Source of the DNA: Hydrurus foetidus
Lineage: Eukaryota
Assembly: GCA_900617105.1 (NCBI GenBank)
Contig: UYFQ01000173.1
Span: 62,001-95,517 of the forward strand
DNA length: 33,517 bases
Reading direction: 5' to 3'
Shown here: positions 1-14,400 of the stretch, piece by piece
Layout of the letters: each line of letters opens with the position of its first letter
How positions within the stretch are numbered: position 1 is the first letter of the stretch
The notes under the pieces: model-generated
What the model was told of the DNA's origin: nothing
The model's input: the letters and a program-made list of their open reading frames with translations, nothing else
Databases searched by the model: none
Position numbers and translations under genes: made by a program

Positions 1-1166
1 TGCGTATGTTATTTATAAGAACAACCTCTTCATTGGTAAGGTGTAAACCAAATCCTCGCCACTCATCGAAGAAGCCACTGACCATAATACCCATACCCTC
101 TGATTTCTGTCGTAAGTTTATCATGCCTTTTACATTCCAGCAGCTTGATAGCATCGCGAACTGCTTGAAGATTGCTTCATCTTGACCAACGTGGTATAGC
201 GGTAGACGGCATTTGCACAATGCTGGATCATGCCTGTGACGACAAGGTAATGCATTCCATTCATCAGCACCGAGATTGTAGTAATACTCTCCTGGCCTTC
301 CTGTTCTAGTGATCATCTCTTTTCTATACATTTCGTGAACCTCTTCATCTAAGTAGTCCACATGAATTTTTACTCTTGGATTAGGGTTGTCAGCCGTGAT
401 AGATGGAAGGGTGGGATCAATCGAGCATGCCCTCAAAACCTTTTCCCTGTTATCTAAAGCCATTTGTGTTGCACTTGACAAGGAACTGTCAATCCAGACA
501 GGCAGTCGGAGTGATGCCTGTAATTGAGCTGATCCGTATCTAGTAATTGTCATAAGGTAGACACGTTATTGCCATTGGATTAATAGAAGCTTTCATCGAA
601 GCAAGTCACCTTTCTTTCAAGTCTTTCTTCGTGCTCTCAGCCTCGTGTGAATCTGTGTAGTATGATATAGTTGACTTTTCGTACTTGCATCCACATCTCA
701 ACATCCATCTGTGAACTGTCGATCTTCGGAATGGCCTCAATTTGTTGAACGCCTGCAAACCAATAGCAGATTTCGGTGGGTCCTTCGCAATGAGAGCTTC
801 TAAATCTCTTGTCGCAACGTCAACGGTTAGTTTCCTCTGATTCTTCAGATATATCTCGAACCTTAGCTTATAGCCATACTCCTCTAAGAATGAATCTCGA
901 TCCCAAACACCCCTTGTGTCTTCCTTGAAACCTCCATTCTCAATGAATTCATTATACCACACAAGAGCAGTCTTCGGGCTTATCTTCTTGCAAGTCTGTC
1001 CTGCGACTTCCTCAGCTAAGCTTGCCATTGAATACAGTGTTCGAAACTTGTTCTTTTCAATTTCATGATCTTTTAGTCTCTCAAGTACTTGGTGTTTGTC
1101 ATTAATTTTCATCTTAAGATTAGCATCATTTAAATCCTCTGTCACAAGGCACCTCTCCAGTGCCAT
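1..1166 (-). CDS. Tc1/mariner (IS630-like) superfamily DDE transposase, partial; exons 1166-610 and 539-<1, intron 609-540; runs off the window
   Basis: ORF 1166-606 has HTH-type segments and RRSTVHRWMLRCGCKY...YYTDSHE, resembling the 'RWL..LGF.Y....Y.DGHE' motif of protist/fungal Tc1-like transposases. A donor AG|GTGACT at 609 and acceptor TACTAG at 540 join it in frame to a stop-free exon I translated by hand. That exon contains HVGQDEAIFKQF (first catalytic Asp) and LRQKSEGMGIMVSGFFDE. The true start is uncertain. Confidence 0.75.
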
Positions 1167-1581
1167 CTTTTTTATTGATCTCGCGCAGAAATGCTGTGAC
1201 TACTAGACACTGTGACATGACCCTTGTGAGCTGCGTCTCGCTTGTCGACTCCAGCGTCATATCTTCTTTTGTAAGATCAATCAAGGTGTCTTAAAGCGTT
1301 TGCTGTGCTGAAGATGTTGATCCAGTCGCACAGTGTCAGCCAATGCAGCTTCAGACGACTGGTAGCCACCAACATACTGCACTGCAACCCTCTTCGAAAG
1401 ATTCTTCGCAGCGATGCGGTAGGAATCTTTGTCCTTCTGTACAACGCTGTAAGACCACTTCGGCATGAGAAATTTTACACTGCTTTATTTCTGTAACGAT
1501 TTGAGTCGAAGTAAATAGGTCAAAAGATGCATCACACTTGCAGCAACTATGTGGCGCTCTTCGCTTAGCAAGGAACATCAT
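1167..1581 (-). pseudogene. Frame-disrupted probable N-terminal part of the transposase
   Basis: Successive coding-like segments in different frames (ORF 1466-1281, then LIDLTKEDMTLESTSETQLTRVMSQCLVVTAFLREINKK) lead into the 1166 ORF across an A-rich stretch. The breaks may be decay or sequencing indels. Confidence 0.35.
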
Positions 1582-1803: not shown

Positions 1804-2249
1804 CAGGGCGGCGGAGTGTTGTCTAAGATAATCACGTACCCCCTCCCCCCTCTCGTCAAACCAGAAAACTTTTTACAATACACGAATTTTACGGAAAGTA
1901 GATGAAATCCGTAGATTAAAACCGGATTCACCGACTATAAATACGGAAACAGTCTGACGAAAACAGATTTCGTTATTTTATATTCCAAATTATTTTACCG
2001 ATTTATGGTGTCACGGATTTTTTGAGTCACGGATTTTTTGGTTTACCGATTTTTCGATTTTCCGTTTCACCGAAAAGTTTTTCGAGGTCGTTTTTACCGA
2101 TTTACTTCACGGAAATTGAATAAAAACCGTAATTTAGAGAGCTTTTAAGTTTCGCGAAAACGAAAAAGTTTCGTGAAAATCCCCCCCCCCCTCCCCCTAT
2201 CGGGTTTTGACCATGACGTGATTATTTTAGACAATACTCCGCCGCCCAG
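1804..2249. mobile_element. Non-autonomous hAT-like element (MITE), 446 bp, 34-bp TIRs, 8-bp TSD
   Basis: 1804-1837 (CAGGGCGGCGGAGTGTTGTCTAAGATAATCACGT) matches the reverse complement of 2216-2249 at 31/34. Flanks are TGGGTCCG (1796-1803) and, after removing the Copia insertion, TGGGCCCG (8300-8307), a 7/8 match. The interior has many short TACCGATTT/CACGGATTT/ACGGAAA motifs like transposase-binding subterminal repeats. Confidence 0.75.
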
Positions 2250-2528
2250 TGTTGGAATTCTGGGCGAATTACACGGAATTTCTTCCGAGTTCCCAAACGA
2301 TCCCTGCACTTCCGACTGCTAGCAACGCTCGCTCAAAAGAGAAGAAGACGTTCTATTCGGTAAGTTGGATTAAACGACAGTGACATGCTGTCGATTACAT
2401 CTAGCTAGCATAACATGAGTGCGAGGGTTGCGGTCAATGTTATCGCTGAATGTACGTACACCCGTGCATGAAAACAATCATACATCACACAGGGTACAAG
2501 ATCCTAGTCTAATCCGGATATCCCAACA
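2250..2528 (-). repeat. 3' LTR (279 bp)
   Basis: Direct repeat of 8015-8294. The only difference I could see is A4 versus A5 after GCATG. Confidence 0.96.
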
Positions 2529-2536
2529 CACCCCCA
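2529..2536 (-). promoter_or_regulatory. Short polypurine tract (TGGGGGTG) abutting the 3' LTR
   Basis: G-run on the minus strand immediately upstream of the 3' LTR, the expected plus-strand primer position. Confidence 0.6.
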
Positions 2537-3039: not shown

Positions 3040-6000
3040 TTATACATTGAGCACTTGGTCGCGTAGCTCTTGGAATAGCTTCCCCTGCAGTGGCTTGGTC
3101 AGCAAATCTGCAATCATTTCTTTAGTACTCTTGTAGGTTACAATAATATGGTCTGATTTAATTCGGTCATGCAGGAAGAAAAACTTGATGTCTATGTGTC
3201 TAGTTCTTTCACTGTTGGACCTACCGTTCTTAACTAACTGAATTGTGGATAGGTTATCTTGGTAAATTAAAGCTGGACCTACCTCATACTCTTGATGGAT
3301 AAGGAAATTCCTAGTCCATAAAACCTGATTACCTGCTTCAGTCATAGCTACTAGTTCTGCCTCTGTGCTAGACGTAGTATTTAATTTCTGAGTGGAACTC
3401 TTACCATATATTGCTCCCTTACCTAGTGTTATAATACAGCCAGTGTGACTCTTCTTATCTGCATGTACAGCGTATGATGCATCTATATAGGCTATAACCT
3501 TAACCGGAGTATCTACCTCTAGGGTCAGCGGCGTAGCTCTGGTCTCTCTGATATACCGTATAGTATGCGCTAACTTATTCCAGTCGTCGGTTCTAGGTTC
3601 TAAGACTCTTTTAGTTAGATATGCTATACATGTCAGTATGTCTGGTCTGGTTCTCTTACTTAAATATAACAACTTAGCTGTTAGTGAGTGGAATCTCTCA
3701 CGTTCTTTATCTTTCAATAAAGGACTGTTAAGATCGATCTTGAATAGATTATCGTCGGCAGGTGTTCTAGACACCCCCACAATCTCTATGCAATCGTCTA
3801 ACAAGTCTTTTATGAAACCTTCCATGGATATGACAACTCTGCCTAACTGCTCAAAGTTAAAAGTCATACCTATATAATTCAACACTCTGCCTCTACTCTT
3901 AGTCAGGCCTGGGTATAGGTTTTCTATCTCTGAAATTATACTATCTATACGCTTCTCATCCCTACTGCTGATCATCATATCATCAACATGGATAACTAAA
4001 GTAGTCTGAGTGGAATCTAGCTCAGTCCTATTGAATACACATATGTCTGATGGATTTACCTTATAGCCTAACTGTGTTAAGTCTGATGATATTTTATCGT
4101 ACCATAACTTAGCTGACTCTACACATCCATATAATGCTTTCTTAAGCTTAACTACTACTGTTCCTTTCTCATTTACATACTTCTGATAGGACTTGTCAAT
4201 GCTAACTAATATGTTAGTCAAATATTTATTCAGTCTCATCAGCACTGCATGGTCACCGTCTAGTGGCATATCACTGTTGAGGAATGCACCAGGAAAATCG
4301 ATCGTAGCGACCGCTCGATTTTCACTAGCAGCAATTGCAGCAACAATAAATACGCTAGTGGTGCTAACAGTTGGTGATGAACCGTTATCATATATATTTC
4401 TATCTTGTAAGTGACCTCCTGCTACAAGTCTAGATTTTAGCTTATCAAATTTACCATCTGCTGTATACTTATCTTTCAAGAACATACTGCTGGTTATGAT
4501 ACTTTTCCTCTGATTGTAACTAAGACTGTTGAGGTGAACTGCCTCCCACACATTCTTATCACACATCTGTTGTAACTCTTTTTTAATGGAATCTACGGCT
4601 ATCTCGCCTAATTTCTGTACTCCTTCTGTTACGGTCATGTTCATCATGTACTTACACATGACTGAATCTTTGTAGCTAGGTATACTTAAACCTACTAATC
4701 TCTTGTTCCATCTGCCTGGCTGATGGTTTCTAGCACTACGTCTGGGTTGTTTATCTAGAATTTCCTCTGACTTGCTATTTTCTGTGGTGGGGGTATCTAC
4801 CTCATCATCACTGTCTACACCAAATATATCATTCATTAATGCATCGGGGTCAGTTGGTGTATCGTCATACACTACATCCACTCCTTCATTAACGTATATA
4901 TCATTTGGTATGTATTCTGTTAATTGTTCAAACTCTGATTCGTAAGCTACGTCAGAATTGACATCGTATGAGTCAAAATTATTTGCTATCTCATGATGCA
5001 CAAATTCGTCTGCTGTGGGGTAACTATACGGTGTTATCATGTCAGGTGTCTGCAACTCAAATTCATCGTTGGAGTAATCATTTCCGTCGTCTTCGAGGAT
5101 TTGATTACTCTGTTCGAAAATAGGTTGCTTGACATTCACTGACATATTTAATTTCCTCTCAGATGCTAACTTATCGAGGTAACTGATCACATCATCTGTC
5201 ATGGGTAGGCTAGTGGCCTTTGTCCTCTTGACTACTTTTAAGTTACTTAACAGCAGATAATACCATGACCCTTCTAAGTTGCCTGCACTAACTAATGCTA
5301 TCGCTGCCTGTGATCTGGGCTTAGTCGAGTTGTCCACGGAGTCGGTATGTACTTGTACGTAATCACCGAAACCGTGTTTCAACTCCTTATCTACGTTAAT
5401 CTTTCTACCGTATAATTTCTCTCTGGGGCTGACGTAAGCTACACTGTTTCTAGTTGGTACTAAATTTAATCTGTTAACAACATATCTAAGTAACCAACTT
5501 TCTAGTAGCTCACTCAGTGAAAAAGGTACCGTGTTGATGATGGCACGAACACGTTCCTTGATCACTCTGATCTTCCTCTCAACTACAGCTACTGCTTCTC
5601 CTGCTCCAGTACTGTCTAATATAATACCTAGTGCGGCTAGCTTACTCTCAAAACTTATAGTGTTAACTGCCGACTCTCCGTCTATTCTTATCATAGTTAT
5701 CTTAAATCCATACTTAGTGATGTGATGTATGTTGCTCTCTAAGTTCATCCATAAGGAAGACTTGTTTTTACGTGAGAGTTTACATATCATCACATATTCT
5801 AAGGGATTTGTAACAGTGACTAGATAGGGTATCGAGTTGACAAACATCAGATCTATGTACATAACCTGGTTCAGGAACTGCCTATCTACAACTGGCATCT
5901 CTTCCTCTAACTCAGTTTTGTGACTAGTTGTTTTCCCCTTAAGGGAACCCAAATCTGGTCCAAAAATATCTAATGCTCTGACTACATCTTGTGCTGTTAT

Positions 6001-6822
6001 GTCGCTCTTATCTAATTTCCCCTGACCTATTAATTTAATTAACTGTCCTGGGCTGGCGTAACCTAACTTTCTCTGATACTCTCTAGCTAACTCTGCTGAC
6101 TTAACTTGTCTAGCTGTATACAGTTTCTTCTTATCCTTAACTGTCATGACCATGATCGATTTATCGAACGATACATTCTTGTAACTGACATTTCTGTCTA
6201 AGTCGCATAGATATATGTTCGTAGACTGATCATGGACAAATCTATATACAGGTCCTAACTTAATCATCCTAACTTTGTAACAATCCTGGTCACTGTCATA
6301 GCTAACTGACTCGCTCGAGCTGACTATGTTACCGAAGGATAATATATTTGCTATACAATTTCTATCGTAGTAAACTGTTCCGAAGTCCGTCTCGCCACAC
6401 TCCGTGATTATCAAGGGTTCCCCCTGAGGGTTCACTCCATTAATAATCATCGGGGTAGCGGACGGCGTGATACTATAAAATAAATCTCCACTACAAAATA
6501 CTGACTCTGCTGCACATGTATCTAACAACACTTGTCTATCTGTAAATGTGGAACTGTGTGTATATACATTCGCACTAAAAATCACAGGGTCACCCCCACA
6601 ATTTTTACTGTTCAGTGGACAAAAATTCTCCAAGCTGCATGCTTTATCTAACAAAGGCACAAACGCAGGGTAACCGGTCGACGTTGCAAATACGTCATGC
6701 AGTCCGGTTTCCCCACACGGAACATTTACATCCTTAGCTAGTGAATCAGGTAAAAAAACATATAAGGGACTTACTTTTCCGAGGAAGTGTGACGCGCAGG
6801 TGCGTTCTTCCTCGGCGGCTTC
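3040..6822 (-). CDS. pol: Pol polyprotein (aspartic protease, integrase, reverse transcriptase, RNase H); frame open from 6822, ORF-track GTG start at 6660
   Basis: PR: VLLDTCA. IN D-D-E: YIDLMF / RIDGE / VVERKIR. RT: TIDFPGAFLN, KALYGCVESAKLWY, IHVDDMMI. Copia-type RNase H: YIDASYA, STEAELVA, YQDNLS, RTRHIDIKFFF, MIADLLTKPL. No internal stops. Confidence 0.96.
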   Translation of the reverse strand, partial: EAAEEERTCASHFLGKVSPLYVFLPDSLAKDVNVPCGETGLHDVFATSTGYPAFVPLLDKACSLENFCPLNSKNCGGDPVIFSANVYTHSSTFTDRQVLLDTCAAESVFCSGDLFYSITPSATPMIINGVNPQGEPLIITECGETDFGTVYYDRNCIANILSFGNIVSSSESVSYDSDQDCYKVRMIKLGPVYRFVHDQSTNIYLCDLDRNVSYKNVSFDKSIMVMTVKDKKKLYTARQVKSAELAREYQRKLGYASPGQLIKLIGQGKLDKSDITAQDVVRALDIFGPDLGSLKGKTTSHKTELEEEMPVVDRQFLNQVMYIDLMFVNSIPYLVTVTNPLEYVMICKLSRKNKSSLWMNLESNIHHITKYGFKITMIRIDGESAVNTISFESKLAALGIILDSTGAGEAVAVVERKIRVIKERVRAIINTVPFSLSELLESWLLRYVVNRLNLVPTRNSVAYVSPREKLYGRKINVDKELKHGFGDYVQVHTDSVDNSTKPRSQAAIALVSAGNLEGSWYYLLLSNLKVVKRTKATSLPMTDDVISYLDKLASERKLNMSVNVKQPIFEQSNQILEDDGNDYSNDEFELQTPDMITPYSYPTADEFVHHEIANNFDSYDVNSDVAYESEFEQLTEYIPNDIYVNEGVDVVYDDTPTDPDALMNDIFGVDSDDEVDTPTTENSKSEEILDKQPRRSARNHQPGRWNKRLVGLSIPSYKDSVMCKYMMNMTVTEGVQKLGEIAVDSIKKELQQMCDKNVWEAVHLNSLSYNQRKSIITSSMFLKDKYTADGKFDKLKSRLVAGGHLQDRNIYDNGSSPTVSTTSVFIVAAIAASENRAVATIDFPGAFLNSDMPLDGDHAVLMRLNKYLTNILVSIDKSYQKYVNEKGTVVVKLKKALYGCVESAKLWYDKISSDLTQLGYKVNPSDICVFNRTELDSTQTTLVIHVDDMMISSRDEKRIDSIISEIENLYPGLTKSRGRVLNYIGMTFNFEQLGRVVISMEGFIKDLLDDCIEIVGVSRTPADDNLFKIDLNSPLLKDKERERFHSLTAKLLYLSKRTRPDILTCIAYLTKRVLEPRTDDWNKLAHTIRYIRETRATPLTLEVDTPVKVIAYIDASYAVHADKKSHTGCIITLGKGAIYGKSSTQKLNTTSSTEAELVAMTEAGNQVLWTRNFLIHQEYEVGPALIYQDNLSTIQLVKNGRSNSERTRHIDIKFFFLHDRIKSDHIIVTYKSTKEMIADLLTKPLQGKLFQELRDQVLNV

Positions 6823-7958
6823 TTACACTCGTACGCGTAGTGCCCCTCCTCCCCGCAGTTGTTGCAAGCTCCGTAACGGGTACCGTACTCCTGTACGGCA
6901 CCAACTCTCTCTCTATGCGGGGTGGCCTCCCTATCCCTATAGGGAGTGCCTGCCCTCGCCGTACTCTCGCTGCCGGGGGTATCGTACCCTCCCTTCTCAG
7001 CTCCGCTGTAGCTGCTTCCTCCGCGGCCTCTGCCGCCTCTGCCTCCGGAACCCGCTCTCCCACCCCGACTGGCCGCGAAAACGTTTCGCCTTTCCGAGTT
7101 CGGGGGAGCTCCTCCGTGGACGGGCCTTCCCATAAGGAAGTTGGCCGCGTCCTGGTTGGCCTCAGCCATGGTCTGCGGCCATGACCGAACCTTATTTTTA
7201 AACGTATTAATATAATCTGAATAGTTTGAATTCAATCCAGTTATAAATAATACAGAATAGAACTCATCTGTGTGTTCTGGGGCTTCTTCGTCCGCCATCC
7301 TGTAGGCTTCGTTCTTCACGAACAGCAGCGTCCTACACCTACTATAATAAGCAGCTAGGTCCTCGTGTGCAGTCATTTTATTTGTATAGAAATTTCTAAC
7401 TGCAGTTATAGTGTTAAATGTTTCTCCATACCTTTTGTTGCTCATGTGTGTTGCAATCACACATGTCAACAGACCTAGTGGATCACACTCCTCCATAGCT
7501 CTCTTCCCAGACGGCATCTCGTTGACCCTGGTCTGTGAAGCCTCTGACATTTGACCTAATAATACACCATACAATTTCGCGCAGTCTTTTGTAAGTAAAT
7601 CATCAGCAGCATCATATTTCTTACGTGCAGTTTTCCATCGTTCTATCGCGACAAGACCGGCTCCCTCCGGCGGGTCTTCAGGTTCCATCTGCTCCACGTA
7701 ATCGTAGAGGATGCCGTCTATACCTATAATCTCTTTACTAGAAGATTCATAAGTACTGTACATATATACTCTAAAACATTCGAGCCATTTCAACACGGCT
7801 TCCGGATCTGCCGCTTGGCCTCGTGGCAGATCCAGGTAAGCACCTACCTCGGGCTTCCTACCTTTTACTATGGGTTTATGGGGCTCGCCTTGCCCCCTAC
7901 CATATCGACCCCTGCCCCCGCCACGGGACTGGAATCTCCCATCGCCTCGTCCTCTCAT
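6771..7958 (-). CDS. gag: Gag protein, 395 aa, with RGG-rich ends and a CCHC zinc knuckle
   Basis: ATG 57 nt after the 5' LTR; CNNCGEEGHYAYEC matches CX2CX4HX4C; capsid-like core (FITGLNSNYSDY); lies upstream of pol. Confidence 0.92.
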   Translation of the reverse strand: MRGRGDGRFQSRGGGRGRYGRGQGEPHKPIVKGRKPEVGAYLDLPRGQAADPEAVLKWLECFRVYMYSTYESSSKEIIGIDGILYDYVEQMEPEDPPEGAGLVAIERWKTARKKYDAADDLLTKDCAKLYGVLLGQMSEASQTRVNEMPSGKRAMEECDPLGLLTCVIATHMSNKRYGETFNTITAVRNFYTNKMTAHEDLAAYYSRCRTLLFVKNEAYRMADEEAPEHTDEFYSVLFITGLNSNYSDYINTFKNKVRSWPQTMAEANQDAANFLMGRPVHGGAPPNSERRNVFAASRGGRAGSGGRGGRGRGGSSYSGAEKGGYDTPGSESTARAGTPYRDREATPHRERVGAVQEYGTRYGACNNCGEEGHYAYECKKPPRKNAPARHTSSEK

Positions 7959-8003: not shown

Positions 8004-8014
8004 ACTGTCGTTTA
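8004..8014 (-). promoter_or_regulatory. Non-canonical primer-binding site TAAACGACAGT, complementary to LTR-internal 8146-8136 (candidate self-priming PBS)
   Basis: Directly abuts the 5' LTR, lacks the TGG of tRNA 3'-end PBSs, and is an 11/11 complement of ACTGTCGTTTA in the LTR on the same RNA strand. Confidence 0.7.
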
Positions 8015-8294
8015 TGTTGGAATTCTGGGCGAATTACACGGAATTTCTTCCGAGTTCCCAAACGATCCCTGCACTTCCGACTGCTAGCAACGCTCGCTCA
8101 AAAGAGAAGAAGACGTTCTATTCGGTAAGTTGGATTAAACGACAGTGACATGCTGTCGATTACATCTAGCTAGCATAACATGAGTGCGAGGGTTGCGGTC
8201 AATGTTATCGCTGAATGTACGTACACCCGTGCATGAAAAACAATCATACATCACACAGGGTACAAGATCCTAGTCTAATCCGGATATCCCAACA
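8015..8294 (-). repeat. 5' LTR (280 bp)
   Basis: Direct repeat of 2250-2528 with TG...CA ends, followed by TSD CCCAG. Confidence 0.96.
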
Positions 8295-8485
8295 CCCAGT
8301 GGGCCCGCAGACTGCCGAGCCCAACCCCCACTGCTTGAAATTTTGGATGACGTTCTATCCCACAAAGCCCATAGCCACAGCTAAATCGAATCGCTCATCT
8401 CTCGTCTCATACTTGCTATGTGTGTATAGTGCATAGTGCATAGTGCAGTACAAAGTGATTACGTCTGTCACCAATTCATTTCGAC

Positions 8486-11400
8486 ATGGAGATACGTCTC
8501 TATATAATGATAAATATCCTTCTCGGACTTCTAGTACTCAGTACGAAACTGGAGAGTTGTCTATCTGGATGTTCGGATTCATCACCGAAGTGCACTGAGG
8601 CACAGCTAGCTCAGAATCATTCCTCAAGTCATACTCATGTTTTCAAGGCTGGGATGCCATTATTGGCATCACGCTCCGATCTAATCAAGAAAGGACGACC
8701 TGATGACGATTATATTCATGAAGTTGTGTTTGCAACCCAGTCGAGGAACATGGACAAATTAACCCGAATAGTTGACGACGTCTCAGATCCGCAAAGTGTC
8801 AACTACGGCCAGCACATGACGAGGGAGCATGTCATAGAGATGACATCTAGCCCAGAATCTTCTGCCGCAGTGAGCGCATATTTGCATTCAAATGGTGCAT
8901 CGGTGGTATCGGTAACTTTAGGCGAAGAGTACATCACAGCTCAGGCACCGATATCTGTGTGGGAGCGGCTCCTCAATACCAGATTCCACATCTTTCAGCA
9001 GACGCATCGCAATGGACATGTGACTGAGTCAGTCAGAGCCGAAGAGTACTGGATATCAAAGGAAATCGACTCGCATGTGCTTTGTGCGACAAATACTGTC
9101 GAAATGCCTGTCATTCAGCAATGGGGAAAGTCAGATGTTGTTGAAGCCGAGAGCACCAGAAACAGAAGGCTTCAAATACCTGGGCTGTTACACGAACAAC
9201 TGATTACTCCCGCAAGACTGAGAATTTATTACAATATTAGTAACAGTAAAGGTAGCAGTTTATCTACCCAGGTGGTCTTCGGGAACCCGGATAGTTATTT
9301 CAGTCAACTACGTCTACGCTGGTTTCAAGGGAATGTGTCAATGCAACCGTATCAAGCAGCTATCATACAGTTCCCAGATGATGGTCACACGAAAGATGAC
9401 GCAGGTGATACTTCTGAGGATAAATTCAGCGAGATCAACCTGGACATACAGTACATAATGGCGATGTCACCTGGGTCACCCACTACATACTGGCGTTACA
9501 ATGATCTGGGCATATCTAGATTTCTCAGAGATATGGCATCGTCACCAAAACCATCGCTAGTGGTAAGTATCAGCTACGCTCTCGTAGAAAGATATAACTC
9601 GCCAGCGGAGTGGTACATTTTTGATGAATGGGTACTGAAGGCGAGTGCGATGGGTATCACGGTATTCAGTGCAACCGGCGACAATGGTGCAGTCGACGGT
9701 GGCATCGATGGGGTATTGAGTCGGTGCAGTTATGCGCCATGTTATCCTAGCTCAAGCCCGTATGTCGTTGCAGTCGGAGGCACCACGGTAAGCACACTCA
9801 AACTTCAACACGTTAACACGATGGACATGTGCAGTATTATCATGGACTCACCAATGCTGTTCCTCTTGCATGCAGGGTGCGTTGGAGTACACCGAGGAAG
9901 TCGTGTGCGCGTGGAGTACAGGCCAAAAAATAACTGGTGGTGGAGGATTCTCAACTCAGTATCTTCGACCAGCGTATCAGGACGCGGCGGTAAAGAGATA
10001 CTTCACAGAAGTGGATCGTTCAACGAATAAGCCTGCACCTGGATACAATGCTGGGGGCAGAGGATTTCCAGACGTGTCTTTCGAAGCGAACATGTACAGA
10101 GTGCAGAAAATGAACGAGCTGGCAACACACTGGAGCGGAACGTCAGGTACCTCCGCGTCTTGTCCTGTCGCAGCAGGCATGTTCTCCAATATCAATGCTG
10201 CTCGCCTAGCTATAGGAAAGGGATCTCTCGGCTGGGTCAACCCTGTGCTGTACACATACTTTTCTCGCTTTGGGAACGATGTAGTGAAGGGAAACAACAA
10301 GGACGGTCCGACATGCCCTCAGGGCTTCTACGCTACACCAGGGTGGGACCCCGCATCAGGTCTCGGATCAATCAATTACGGGAAGTTTGAAGAAGTCATG
10401 CTTTCACTCGGAAACGTCAACTCTGCTTTAGCGGATCCGTTACCTCAGCCAACACAATATCCGACTAAACTTGCAAAAACTCCATTCAACAACGAAGGAT
10501 CGGAAGAATACAAAGAGCCCGATTATATAATTGCTATGCCGACCACCATACCTACAAATGCCCCGAGCATCAAGCCATCAAAAATTCCAACTATGATACC
10601 TACGTCAACGCCCACGCTATCGCCGACGTCACGACCCAGCAGCTGTCCCAGTATGGTGCCGTCAGACATGCCAACTATGATACCTGCGTCAACGCCTACG
10701 TCAACGCCCACGCTATCGCCGACGTCACGACCCAGCAGCTGTCCCAGTATGGTGCCGTCAGACATGCCAACTATGATACCTGCGTCAACGCCCACGCTAT
10801 CGCCGACGTCACGACCCAGCAGCTGTCCCAGTATGGTGCCGTCAGACATGCCAACTATGATACCTGCGTCAACGCCTACGTCAACGCCCACGCTATCGCC
10901 GACGTCACGACCCAGCAGCTGTCCCAGTATGGTGCCGTCAGACATGCCAACTATGATACCTGCGTCAACGCCTACGTCAACGCCCACGCTATCGCCGACG
11001 TCACGACCCAGCAGCTGTCCCAGTATGGTGCCGTCAGACATGCCAACTATGATACCTACGTCAACGCCCACGCTATCGCCGACGTCACGACCCAGCAGCT
11101 GTCCCAGTATGGTGCCGTCAGACATGCCAACTATGATACCTGCGTCAACGCCTACGTCAACGCCCACGCTATCGCCGACGTCACGACCCAGCAGCTGTCC
11201 CAGTATGGTGCCGTCAGACATGCCAACTATGATACCTGCGTCAACGCCTACGTCAACGCCCACGCTATCGCCGACGTCACGACCCAGCAGCTGTCCCAGT
11301 ATGGTGCCGTCAGACATGCCAACTATGATACCTGCGTCAACGCCTACGTCAACGCCCACGCTATCGCCGACGTCACGACCCAGCAGCTGTCCCAGTATGG

Positions 11401-14400
11401 TGCCGTCAGACATGCCAACTATGATACCTGCGTCAACGCCTACGTCAACGCCCACGCTATCGCCGACGTCACGACCCAGCAGCTGTCCCAGTATGGTGCC
11501 GTCAGACATGCCAACTATGATACCTGCGTCAACGCCTACGTCAACGCCCACGCTATCGCCGACGTCACGACCCAGCAGCTGTCCCAGTATGGTGCCGTCA
11601 GACATGCCAACTATGATACCTGCGTCAACGCCTACGTCAACGCCCACGCTATCGCCGACGTCACGACCCAGCAGCTGTCCCAGTATGGTGCCGTCAGACA
11701 TGCCAACTATGATACCTGCGTCAACGCCTACGTCAACGCCCACGCTATCGCCGACGTCACGACCCAGCAGCTGTCCCAGTATGGTGCCGTCAGACATGCC
11801 AACTATGATACCTGCGTCAACGCCTACGTCAACGCCCACGCTATCGCCGACGTCACGACCCAGCAGCTGTCCCAGTATGGTGCCGTCAGACATGCCAACT
11901 ATGATACCTGCGTCAACGCCTACGTCAACGCCCACGCTATCGCCGACGTCACGACCCAGCAGCTGTCCCAGTATGGTGCCGTCAGACATGCCAACTATGA
12001 TACCTGCGTCAACGCCTACGTCAACGCCCACGCTATCGCCGACGTCACGACCCAGCAGCTGTCCCAGTATGGTGCCGTCAGACATGCCAACTATGATACC
12101 TGCGTCAACGCCTACGTCAACGCCCACGCTATCGCCGACGTCACGACCCAGCAGCTGTCCCAGTATGGTGCCGTCAGACATGCCAACTATGATACCTGCG
12201 TCAACGCCTCGTCAACGCCCACGCTATCGCCGACGTCACGACCCAGCAGCTGTCCCAGTATGGTGCCGTCAGACATGCCAACTATGATACCTACGTCAAC
12301 GCCCACGCTATCGCCGACGTCACGACCCAGCAGCTGTCCCAGTATGGTGCCGTCAGACATGCCAACTATGATACCTACGTCAACGCCCACGCTATCGCCG
12401 ACGTCACGACCCAGCAGCTGTCCCAGTATGGTGCCGTCAGACATGCCAACTATGATACCTACGTCAACGCCCACGCTATCGCCGACGTCACGACCCAGCA
12501 GCTGTCCCAGTATGGTGCCGTCAGACATGCCAACTATGATACCTGCGTCAACGCCTACGTCAACGCCCACGCTATCGCCGACGTCACGACCCAGCAGCTG
12601 TCCCAGTATGGTGCCGTCAGACATGCCAACTATGATACCTACGTCAACGCCCACGCTATCGCCGACGTCACGACCCAGCAGCTGTCCCAGTATGGTGCCG
12701 TCAGACATGCCAACTATGATACCTGCGTCAACGCCCGTCAACGCCCACGCTATCGCCGACGTCACGACCCAGCAGCTGTCCCAGTATGGTGCCGTCAGAC
12801 ATGCCAACTATGATACCTGCGTCAACGCCTACGTCAACGCCCACGCTATCGCCGACGTCACGACCCAGCAGCTGTCCCAGTATGGTGCCGTCAGACATGC
12901 CAACTATGATACCTACGTCAACGCCCACGCTATCGCCGACGTCACGACCCAGCAGCTGTCCCAGTATGGTGCCGTCAGACATGCCAACTATGATACCTAC
13001 GTCAACGCCCACGCTATCGCCGACGTCACGACCCAGCAGCTGTCCCAGTATGGTGCCGTCAGACATGCCAACTATGATACCTGCGTCAACGCCTACGTCA
13101 ACGCCCACGCTATCGCCGACGTCACGACCCAGCAGCTGTCCCAGTATGGTGCCGTCAGACATGCCAACTATGATACCTGCGTCAACGCCTCGTCAACGCC
13201 CACGCTATCGCCGACGTCACGACCCAGCAGCTGTCCCAGTATGGTGCCGTCAGACATGCCAACTATGATACCTGCGTCAACGCCTACGTCAACGCCCACG
13301 CTATCGCCGACGTCACGACCCAGCAGCTGTCCCAGTATGGTGCCGTCAGACATGCCAACTATGATACCTGCGTCAACGCCTACGTCAACGCCCACGCTAT
13401 CGCCGACGTCACGACCCAGCAGCTGTCCCAGTATGGTGCCGTCAGACATGCCAACTATGATACCTGCGTCAACGCCTACGTCAACGCCCACGCTATCGCC
13501 GACGTCACGACCCAGCAGCTGTCCCAGTATGGTGCCGTCAGACATGCCAACTATGATACCTGCGTCAACGCCTACGTCAACGCCCACGCTATCGCCGACG
13601 TCACGACCCAGCAGCTGTCCCAGTATGGTGCCGTCAGACATGCCAACTATGATACCTGCGTCAACGCCTACGTCAACGCCCACGCTATCGCCGACGTCAC
13701 GACCCAGCAGCTGTCCCAGTATGGTGCCGTCAGACATGCCAACTATGATACCTGCGTCAACGCCTACGTCAACGCCCACGCTATCGCCGACGTCACGACC
13801 CAGCAGCTGTCCCAGTATGGTGCCGTCAGACATGCCAACTATGATACCTGCGTCAACGCCTCGTCAACGCCCACGCTATCGCCGACGTCACGACCCAGCA
13901 GCTGTCCCAGTATGGTGCCGTCAGACATGCCAACTATGATACCTGCGTCAACGCCCACGCTATCGCCCACGCTATCGCCGTCGTCACGACCCAGCAGCTG
14001 TCCCAGTATGGTGCCGTCAGACATGCCAACTATGATACCTGCGTCAACGCCTACGTCAACGCCCACGCTATCGCCGACGTCACGACCCAGCAGCTGTCCC
14101 AGTATGGTGCCGTCAGACATGCCAACTATGATACCTGCGTCAACGCCTACGTCAACGCCCACGCTATCGCCGACGTCACGACCCAGCAGCTGTCCCAGTA
14201 TGGTGCCGTCAGACATGCCAACTATGATACCTGCGTCAACGCCTACGTCAACGCCCACGCTATCGCCGACGTCACGACCCAGCAGCTGTCCCAGTATGGT
14301 GCCGTCAGACATGCCAACTATGATACCTGCGTCAACGCCCACGCTATCGCCGACGTCACGACCCAGCAGCTGTCCCAGTATGGTGCCGTCAGACATGCCA

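Follow-up and report, generated by a model that had tools for sequence, protein, structure and literature searches.

What is the role of a 35-base imperfect inverted repeat that straddles the predicted transcription start site (TSS) of an LTR retrotransposon from Hydrurus foetidus? One arm of the repeat is likely the self-primer of the element, and the other arm, in the predicted U3, resembles the PBS. The sequence-only reading proposed that the second arm is a built-in switch that locks the primer copy at the RNA 3' end. The window analysed here is the whole stretch of 33,517 nucleotides (contig UYFQ01000173.1, positions 62,001 to 95,517), and all coordinates are given in it.

The element and its inverted repeat

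The features discussed below are as follows.

8015..8294, minus strand: 5' LTR, 280 bp, TG...CA
2250..2528, minus strand: 3' LTR, 279 bp, differing from the 5' LTR by one indel
8295..8299, minus strand: target-site duplication (TSD), 5 bp, left copy
2245..2249, minus strand: target-site duplication, 5 bp, right copy
2529..2535, minus strand: G-rich polypurine tract (PPT) before the 3' LTR
6771..7958, minus strand: gag, with CCHC zinc knuckle
3040..6822, minus strand: pol, 1260 open codons, in another frame than gag and overlapping it
8132..8166, minus strand: imperfect inverted repeat of the 5' LTR, lying across the predicted TSS; hairpin of 12 bp with 7-nt loop predicted
8153..8162, minus strand: left arm ("PBS mimic") in the predicted U3, a 9/10 inverted copy of the primer
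8136..8146, minus strand: right arm, likely self-primer, 11 nt, beginning at the A of an initiator-like TCA
8004..8014, minus strand: PBS adjoining the 5' LTR, exact complement of 8146-8136, first letters not TGG
2367..2401, minus strand: identical hairpin in the 3' LTR, the one expected in the RNA 3' end

The element is a Ty1/copia LTR retrotransposon, since its reverse transcriptase is of the copia type (RVT_2 domain, pol residues 758-1010); the TG..CA LTRs, the 5-bp TSD and the PPT are also present. Motifs preceding the reverse transcriptase, which by eye look protease- and integrase-like, have no Pfam match. No chromodomain was matched in the domain scan of the element proteins. The gag ATG is found at 7958, 46 nt past the PBS. 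The gag/pol overlap comprises 52 nt (6771-6822, minus strand) with pol in the -1 frame, and a classical slippery heptamer is not evident in it by eye. The near-identity of the LTRs, whose single indel is located outside the hairpin, suggests a recent insertion. Thousands of variant contigs of the family are found in single runs (7,404 and 9,607 aligned), which suggests that the family is multi-copy. Biofilm, sediment, air, freshwater and glacier metagenomes are among the runs that contain it.

The insertion is positioned at the very end of a 440-bp MITE-like element (1806-2247) with 32-bp terminal inverted repeats (30/32), and its TSD runs into the start of one of these repeats. On the opposite strand, about 190 bp from the 5' LTR, starts an S53 peptidase gene (8459-13939, plus strand) with a pro-kumamolisin domain and a long Pro/Thr/Ser tandem-repeat tail. 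Its relatives are named tripeptidyl-peptidase I, and its only organism-named matches are two EukProt algal proteins (33-34%). Very long tandem arrays occupy ~10500-32000, with a 48-bp period at 24.9-26.5 kb; some of them are present in both orientations at 97-100% identity, and they contain long open frames on both strands. Two open frames are found at 2-1199 (minus strand), one of 188 codons and one of 197, the latter without a Pfam match.

The layout of 8166-8132 read from the minus strand proved correct in every detail, including the 9/10 mimic and the 7-nt loop. The mimic (8162-8153) agrees with the first 10 bases of the PBS (8014-8005) at 9/10, and the PBS (8014-8004) is complementary to the LTR tract 8146-8136 at 11/11. 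The loop is formed by 8152-8146. It ends with A8146, which opens the 11-nt tract and is also the putative +1, so the loop does hold the predicted TSS. The second copy announced for the 3' LTR is likewise present at 2401-2367, with its core at 2397-2371 (mimic 2397-2388, primer copy 2381-2371).

The 35-mer is predicted to fold into a stem of 3+3+6 bp with an energy of -9.1 kcal/mol (z -2.7; 2 of 200 shuffles were equally good). The 12 bp of the stem are interrupted by a U-U mismatch and a bulge, and in its 81-nt context the hairpin has a z of +0.5. When the proximal 40 nt were shuffled 20,000 times, an inverted copy of at least 9/10 came up 11 times, and 20,000 shuffles of the complete U3 (148 nt) gave 61; at arbitrary LTR positions in related elements such copies occur at a rate of 26/11,560. 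The mimic is thus beyond chance for a pre-chosen site (0.0006-0.003), yet it was spotted after the fact.

Self-priming layout in related elements

The relatives were retrieved as 101 loci starting from 39 aligned pol proteins; 88 loci contain the pol C-terminus, and 67 extend at least 350 nt beyond it. Many of the contigs are collapsed circles in which the LTR and PBS are found directly after pol or across the terminal overlap. Two loci (L004 1-12858 and L054 1-10776) carry the whole element head-to-tail at 100% identity, which may be an artefact of circle assembly or a real tandem as described for Tf1. A primer/PBS pair was found in 53 of the 67 loci, and some of the other 14 may simply end before the PBS. 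After removal of L021, L026, L031 and L042, which have no clear LTR end, 49 relatives were kept, with L008 and L066 re-anchored by hand. These 49 are mutually related and were used without dereplication. Their identity to the window element is 36-57% over the RT/RNase H region; proteins at 58-84% identity are available at the protein level only and stand outside the LTR/PBS comparison. In a tree of the quick kind the window element has no strongly supported sister, and the relatives in it are unnamed.

In 45 of the 67 relatives at least 9 bases directly after the LTR end are complementary to an LTR tract, against 0.7 in shuffles; complementarity of at least 12 bp is found in 27, against 0. In the 49 relatives and the window element the pairs are 9-25 nt long with a spacing of 52-213 nt, the primer starts with CA in 41 of 50, and the PBS 9-mers are almost all different (45 distinct among 50 elements), none of them beginning with TGG (0/50). 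Primer-PBS pairing modelled from +1 exceeds 0.5 in 41 of the 49 relatives and reaches 0.95 in the window element. The premise of the sequence-only reading, a putative self-primer in the LTR, is thereby supported by the 45 of 67 relatives. The 11-nt tract 8146-8136 is likely the self-primer. The layout is conserved across the lineage while its letters change, and the comparison argues strongly for self-priming.

Several further observations concern the PBS and its surroundings. The PBS starts with TAA in 23 and with CAA in 12 of the 50 elements, so the predicted cut site would have a preferred sequence context. Locus L015, a relative of the self-priming type, carries shortly after the pol end (2985-2996) the 12-nt tRNA-Met PBS described for metazoan GalEa. 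This match is the only one among the loci and is possibly due to chance. No tRNA gene was found in the window, and its single Rfam match (E 0.43) was rejected. The LTR region has no match in five genomes from which loci come (0/5). No relative was found in the viral contigs searched; ten matches to an LTR-end/PBS pattern have no separate primer copy and were taken as chance.

Conservation of the hairpin

The sequence-only reading implied that the hairpin should persist wherever the primer-PBS pairing does. At the level of the lineage the opposite is found: an inverted primer copy of at least 9/10 within 40 nt is present in none of the 49 relatives that keep the primer/PBS pair, and 8/10 is reached in 6. 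The elements closest along the tree (L001-L004, L013) lack the mimic as well. The mean energy of the U3-primer duplex in the 49 relatives is -3.5 kcal/mol vs -3.2 kcal/mol with shuffled U3 (p 0.48), and the mean pairing probability is 0.29 vs 0.27 (p 0.72). Taken singly, relatives with p<0.05 number 3 for the match, 3 for the duplex energy and 7 for the pairing probability; the last number is above the 2-3 expected, though the means equal those of the shuffles. Within 150 nt upstream a copy of at least 9/10 is found in 3 of 49 (mean best match 7.06 vs 6.96 shuffled). By the local-score test, z exceeds 2 at 3 of 49 primers, and control windows reach this in 9 of 147 cases (p 0.13). A conserved primer-masking switch in U3 is therefore not supported by this comparison: besides the missing mimic (0/49), both energy and pairing of the real U3 are those of the shuffled one. 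As the relatives are distant (36-57%), a function confined to the element's own family would escape such a comparison.

In the relative L033 the primer region recurs as a perfect inverted copy of 15 nt about 100 nt upstream, in a U3 stretch composed of A and T only. This copy exceeds the 12-bp primer/PBS pair of the same element.

The family of the window element itself is nearly invariant at the hairpin. In the four runs aligned on 8105-8200 (96 nt) the only two variants listed at 1% or more lie in the loop (8150) and outside the stem (8170). The stem makes up about a quarter of this stretch, and variants sparing it would be expected about half the time by chance, though the pattern fits constraint. 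A single contig from runs recorded or guessed as RNA spans 8105-8200 in one piece, and it may be DNA. Diverged sister pieces with 5-12 differences (runs X1, X4 and X10) cover window positions 8134-8200. They are alignable around the start site and loose upstream of ~8177-8184 as well as just downstream of the primer.

Energetics of the proposed switch

The primer forms a duplex of -13.6 kcal/mol with the PBS vs -9.3 kcal/mol with the mimic. Four 3'-end RNAs were modelled, and pairing between their primer copy and the mimic has a probability of 0.45-0.70 at 37 C. Of the claim that the 3' copy is locked in the hairpin, the predicted pairing with the mimic stands: the hairpin probably forms at the RNA 3' end part of the time, in the models 45-70% of it.

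It was further claimed that priming is confined to correctly initiated transcripts. The models speak against this claim: among 15 RNAs started far enough upstream to contain the mimic, primer-PBS pairing stays at 0.87 or above in 9, has values of 0.52-0.61 in 3 and drops below 0.5 in 3. One of the last three carries the whole U3 (0.17); when the whole LTR stands upstream, pairing with the mimic prevails in the model (0.59 vs 0.17 for primer-PBS). As a filter of start sites the hairpin would thus be unreliable. In models of the relatives the real U3 and shuffled U3 were compared, and the real one does not depress primer-PBS pairing any further.

In the Tf1 scheme R would have to pass +12 for strand transfer, and therefore a 3' copy of the primer is expected in every element of this kind, with the poly(A) site of any replicating RNA downstream of that copy. 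The 49 relatives have no dedicated proximal mask for it, so the lineage does not depend on one in the proximal U3.

Comparison with known systems

Proof of self-priming exists for Tf1: its RNA pairs with the PBS through the first 11 bases, and RNase H cleaves behind base 11 (PMC7175516, in the part available). According to the accessible text of two further papers, self-priming is inferred for the Tf1/sushi group (PMC10085805, PMC4600332). As in Tf1, Tf2, Tj1 and the Tf1/sushi group of Ty3/gypsy, as far as the available parts of these sources describe them, an 11-nt LTR tract of the window element complements a PBS adjoining the 5' LTR, and there is no PBS of the tRNA type. Unlike the Tf1/sushi elements, which are Ty3/gypsy chromoviruses, it has a copia-type reverse transcriptase and no chromodomain match. 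In contrast to Tf1, the flanking "pretzel" duplexes were not detected in the window element or in the relatives: by a coarse duplex-energy test the leader-R and U5-end arms are no better than shuffles in the window (z -0.1 and -0.5), and in the 49 relatives the mean z against shuffles by the same coarse test is 0.19 and -0.04. The U3 hairpin over the primer is a feature of the window element that the available text on the Tf1 group does not mention; the titles and abstract openings returned by literature searches likewise contain nothing on such a hairpin. Judging from its layout (PBS abutting the LTR, complement in the LTR, no match to a tRNA 3' end), the element would work like Tf1 but is not a member of that group.

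Among copia elements, self-priming was predicted for the plant TAR lineage (Houba, Osr-1) with a rule of at least 10 bp (PMC6317226, available part). The window element resembles these elements as a copia element with self-complementary PBS, and it satisfies the TAR rule of at least 10 bp as worded in that part. It differs from them in its host, which is likely a protist.

By resemblance, the element may stand close to the CoDi/GalEa branch (diatoms, fungi, aquatic animals). It has in common with this branch the copia pol and the aquatic relatives. The fungal GalEa elements share with it the lack of a tRNA PBS and differ by having, in the available part of their description (PMC5445492), a hairpin after the LTR and no LTR complement. 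The words "tRNA", "Tf1" and "self" are absent from the main text of the CoDi paper as available (PMC2806351), and priming is undiscussed there.

Interpretation of the left arm

The best explanation, to which we assign a probability of about 0.7, is that within the imperfect inverted repeat of 35 bases the left arm is a family-private by-product that priming does not need. By analogy with Tf1, transcription would start at A8146 and the first 11 nt would pair with the PBS at a distance of 121 nt; RNase H would cut after base 11, and the reverse transcriptase would extend the new end. At the RNA 3' end, partial folding of the repeated primer sequence onto the left arm is predicted. This pairing would matter little, because the 5' primer can already pair with the PBS when ~5.7 kb remain to be transcribed up to the 3' copy, because the PBS duplex is the stronger one and because the relatives retain the priming layout in the absence of such an arm.

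The left arm may have arisen by chance or by local inverted duplication. Its left flank adds 3 matches to inverted R with one gap, and its right flank adds 3 to the PBS context, also with one gap. The flanks thus fit both contexts equally, and the alignment is equally consistent with chance, fold-back duplication and capture of PBS DNA. The cDNA of Tf1 often retains a single-stranded PBS end (PMC11042837, available part), which makes capture of PBS DNA a conceivable source of the mimic by analogy.

It is unlikely, though less so than the other alternatives, that the family of the window element alone evolved a U3 arm which hides the 3' copy of the primer or puts read-through RNAs containing the whole U3 out of action. 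The predicted 45-70% pairing in 3'-end RNAs and the dominance of the mimic in the whole-LTR read-through RNA agree with such an arm, as do its low site-specific chance and the lack of stem variants at 1% or more within the family; L033 may be a parallel. Against it stand the absence of the mimic from all 49 relatives, the 9 of 15 upstream starts that retain primer-PBS pairing and a stem which, with its U-U mismatch and bulge, is weaker than the PBS duplex.

Slightly less probable still is a core-promoter or 3'-end-processing element, for which the likeness to the PBS would be a mere result of symmetry with the primer. The repeat is centred near the predicted initiator, and the sister pieces are alignable at 80% or more across ~8135-8180 and loose further upstream. 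However, proximal promoters are in general more conserved than distal U3, and the repeat is not conserved in the relatives.

The least probable alternative is that the 11-nt tract is no primer, its pairing with the PBS being structural and the PBS binding a host RNA such as an internal tRNA fragment: half-tRNA priming in other copia lineages (PMC6317226, available part) and the undetected Tf1-type "pretzel" arms would suit it, but each of the 50 elements, with 45 distinct PBS 9-mers among them, has its own LTR match of 9-25 nt, the pairing begins at the first base past the LTR, and the primer mostly starts with CA (41/50).

Significance for self-priming elements

A switch role of the left arm would, if real, explain how self-priming elements deal with the primer sequence that recurs at their RNA 3' end. 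A decoy specific to this family, if true, would be an undescribed layer of control on tRNA-independent priming, and a few self-priming families, perhaps including that of L033, would have reached such a solution separately. The negative result is useful as well: dozens of relatives keep the self-priming layout without the arm. The firmest result, a large copia lineage of aquatic origin whose primer/PBS pairs covary over 9-25 nt, extends the mechanism proven in Tf1, and the present family, being young, intact and apparently multi-copy, would be a good substrate for a first bench test of it in a copia element.
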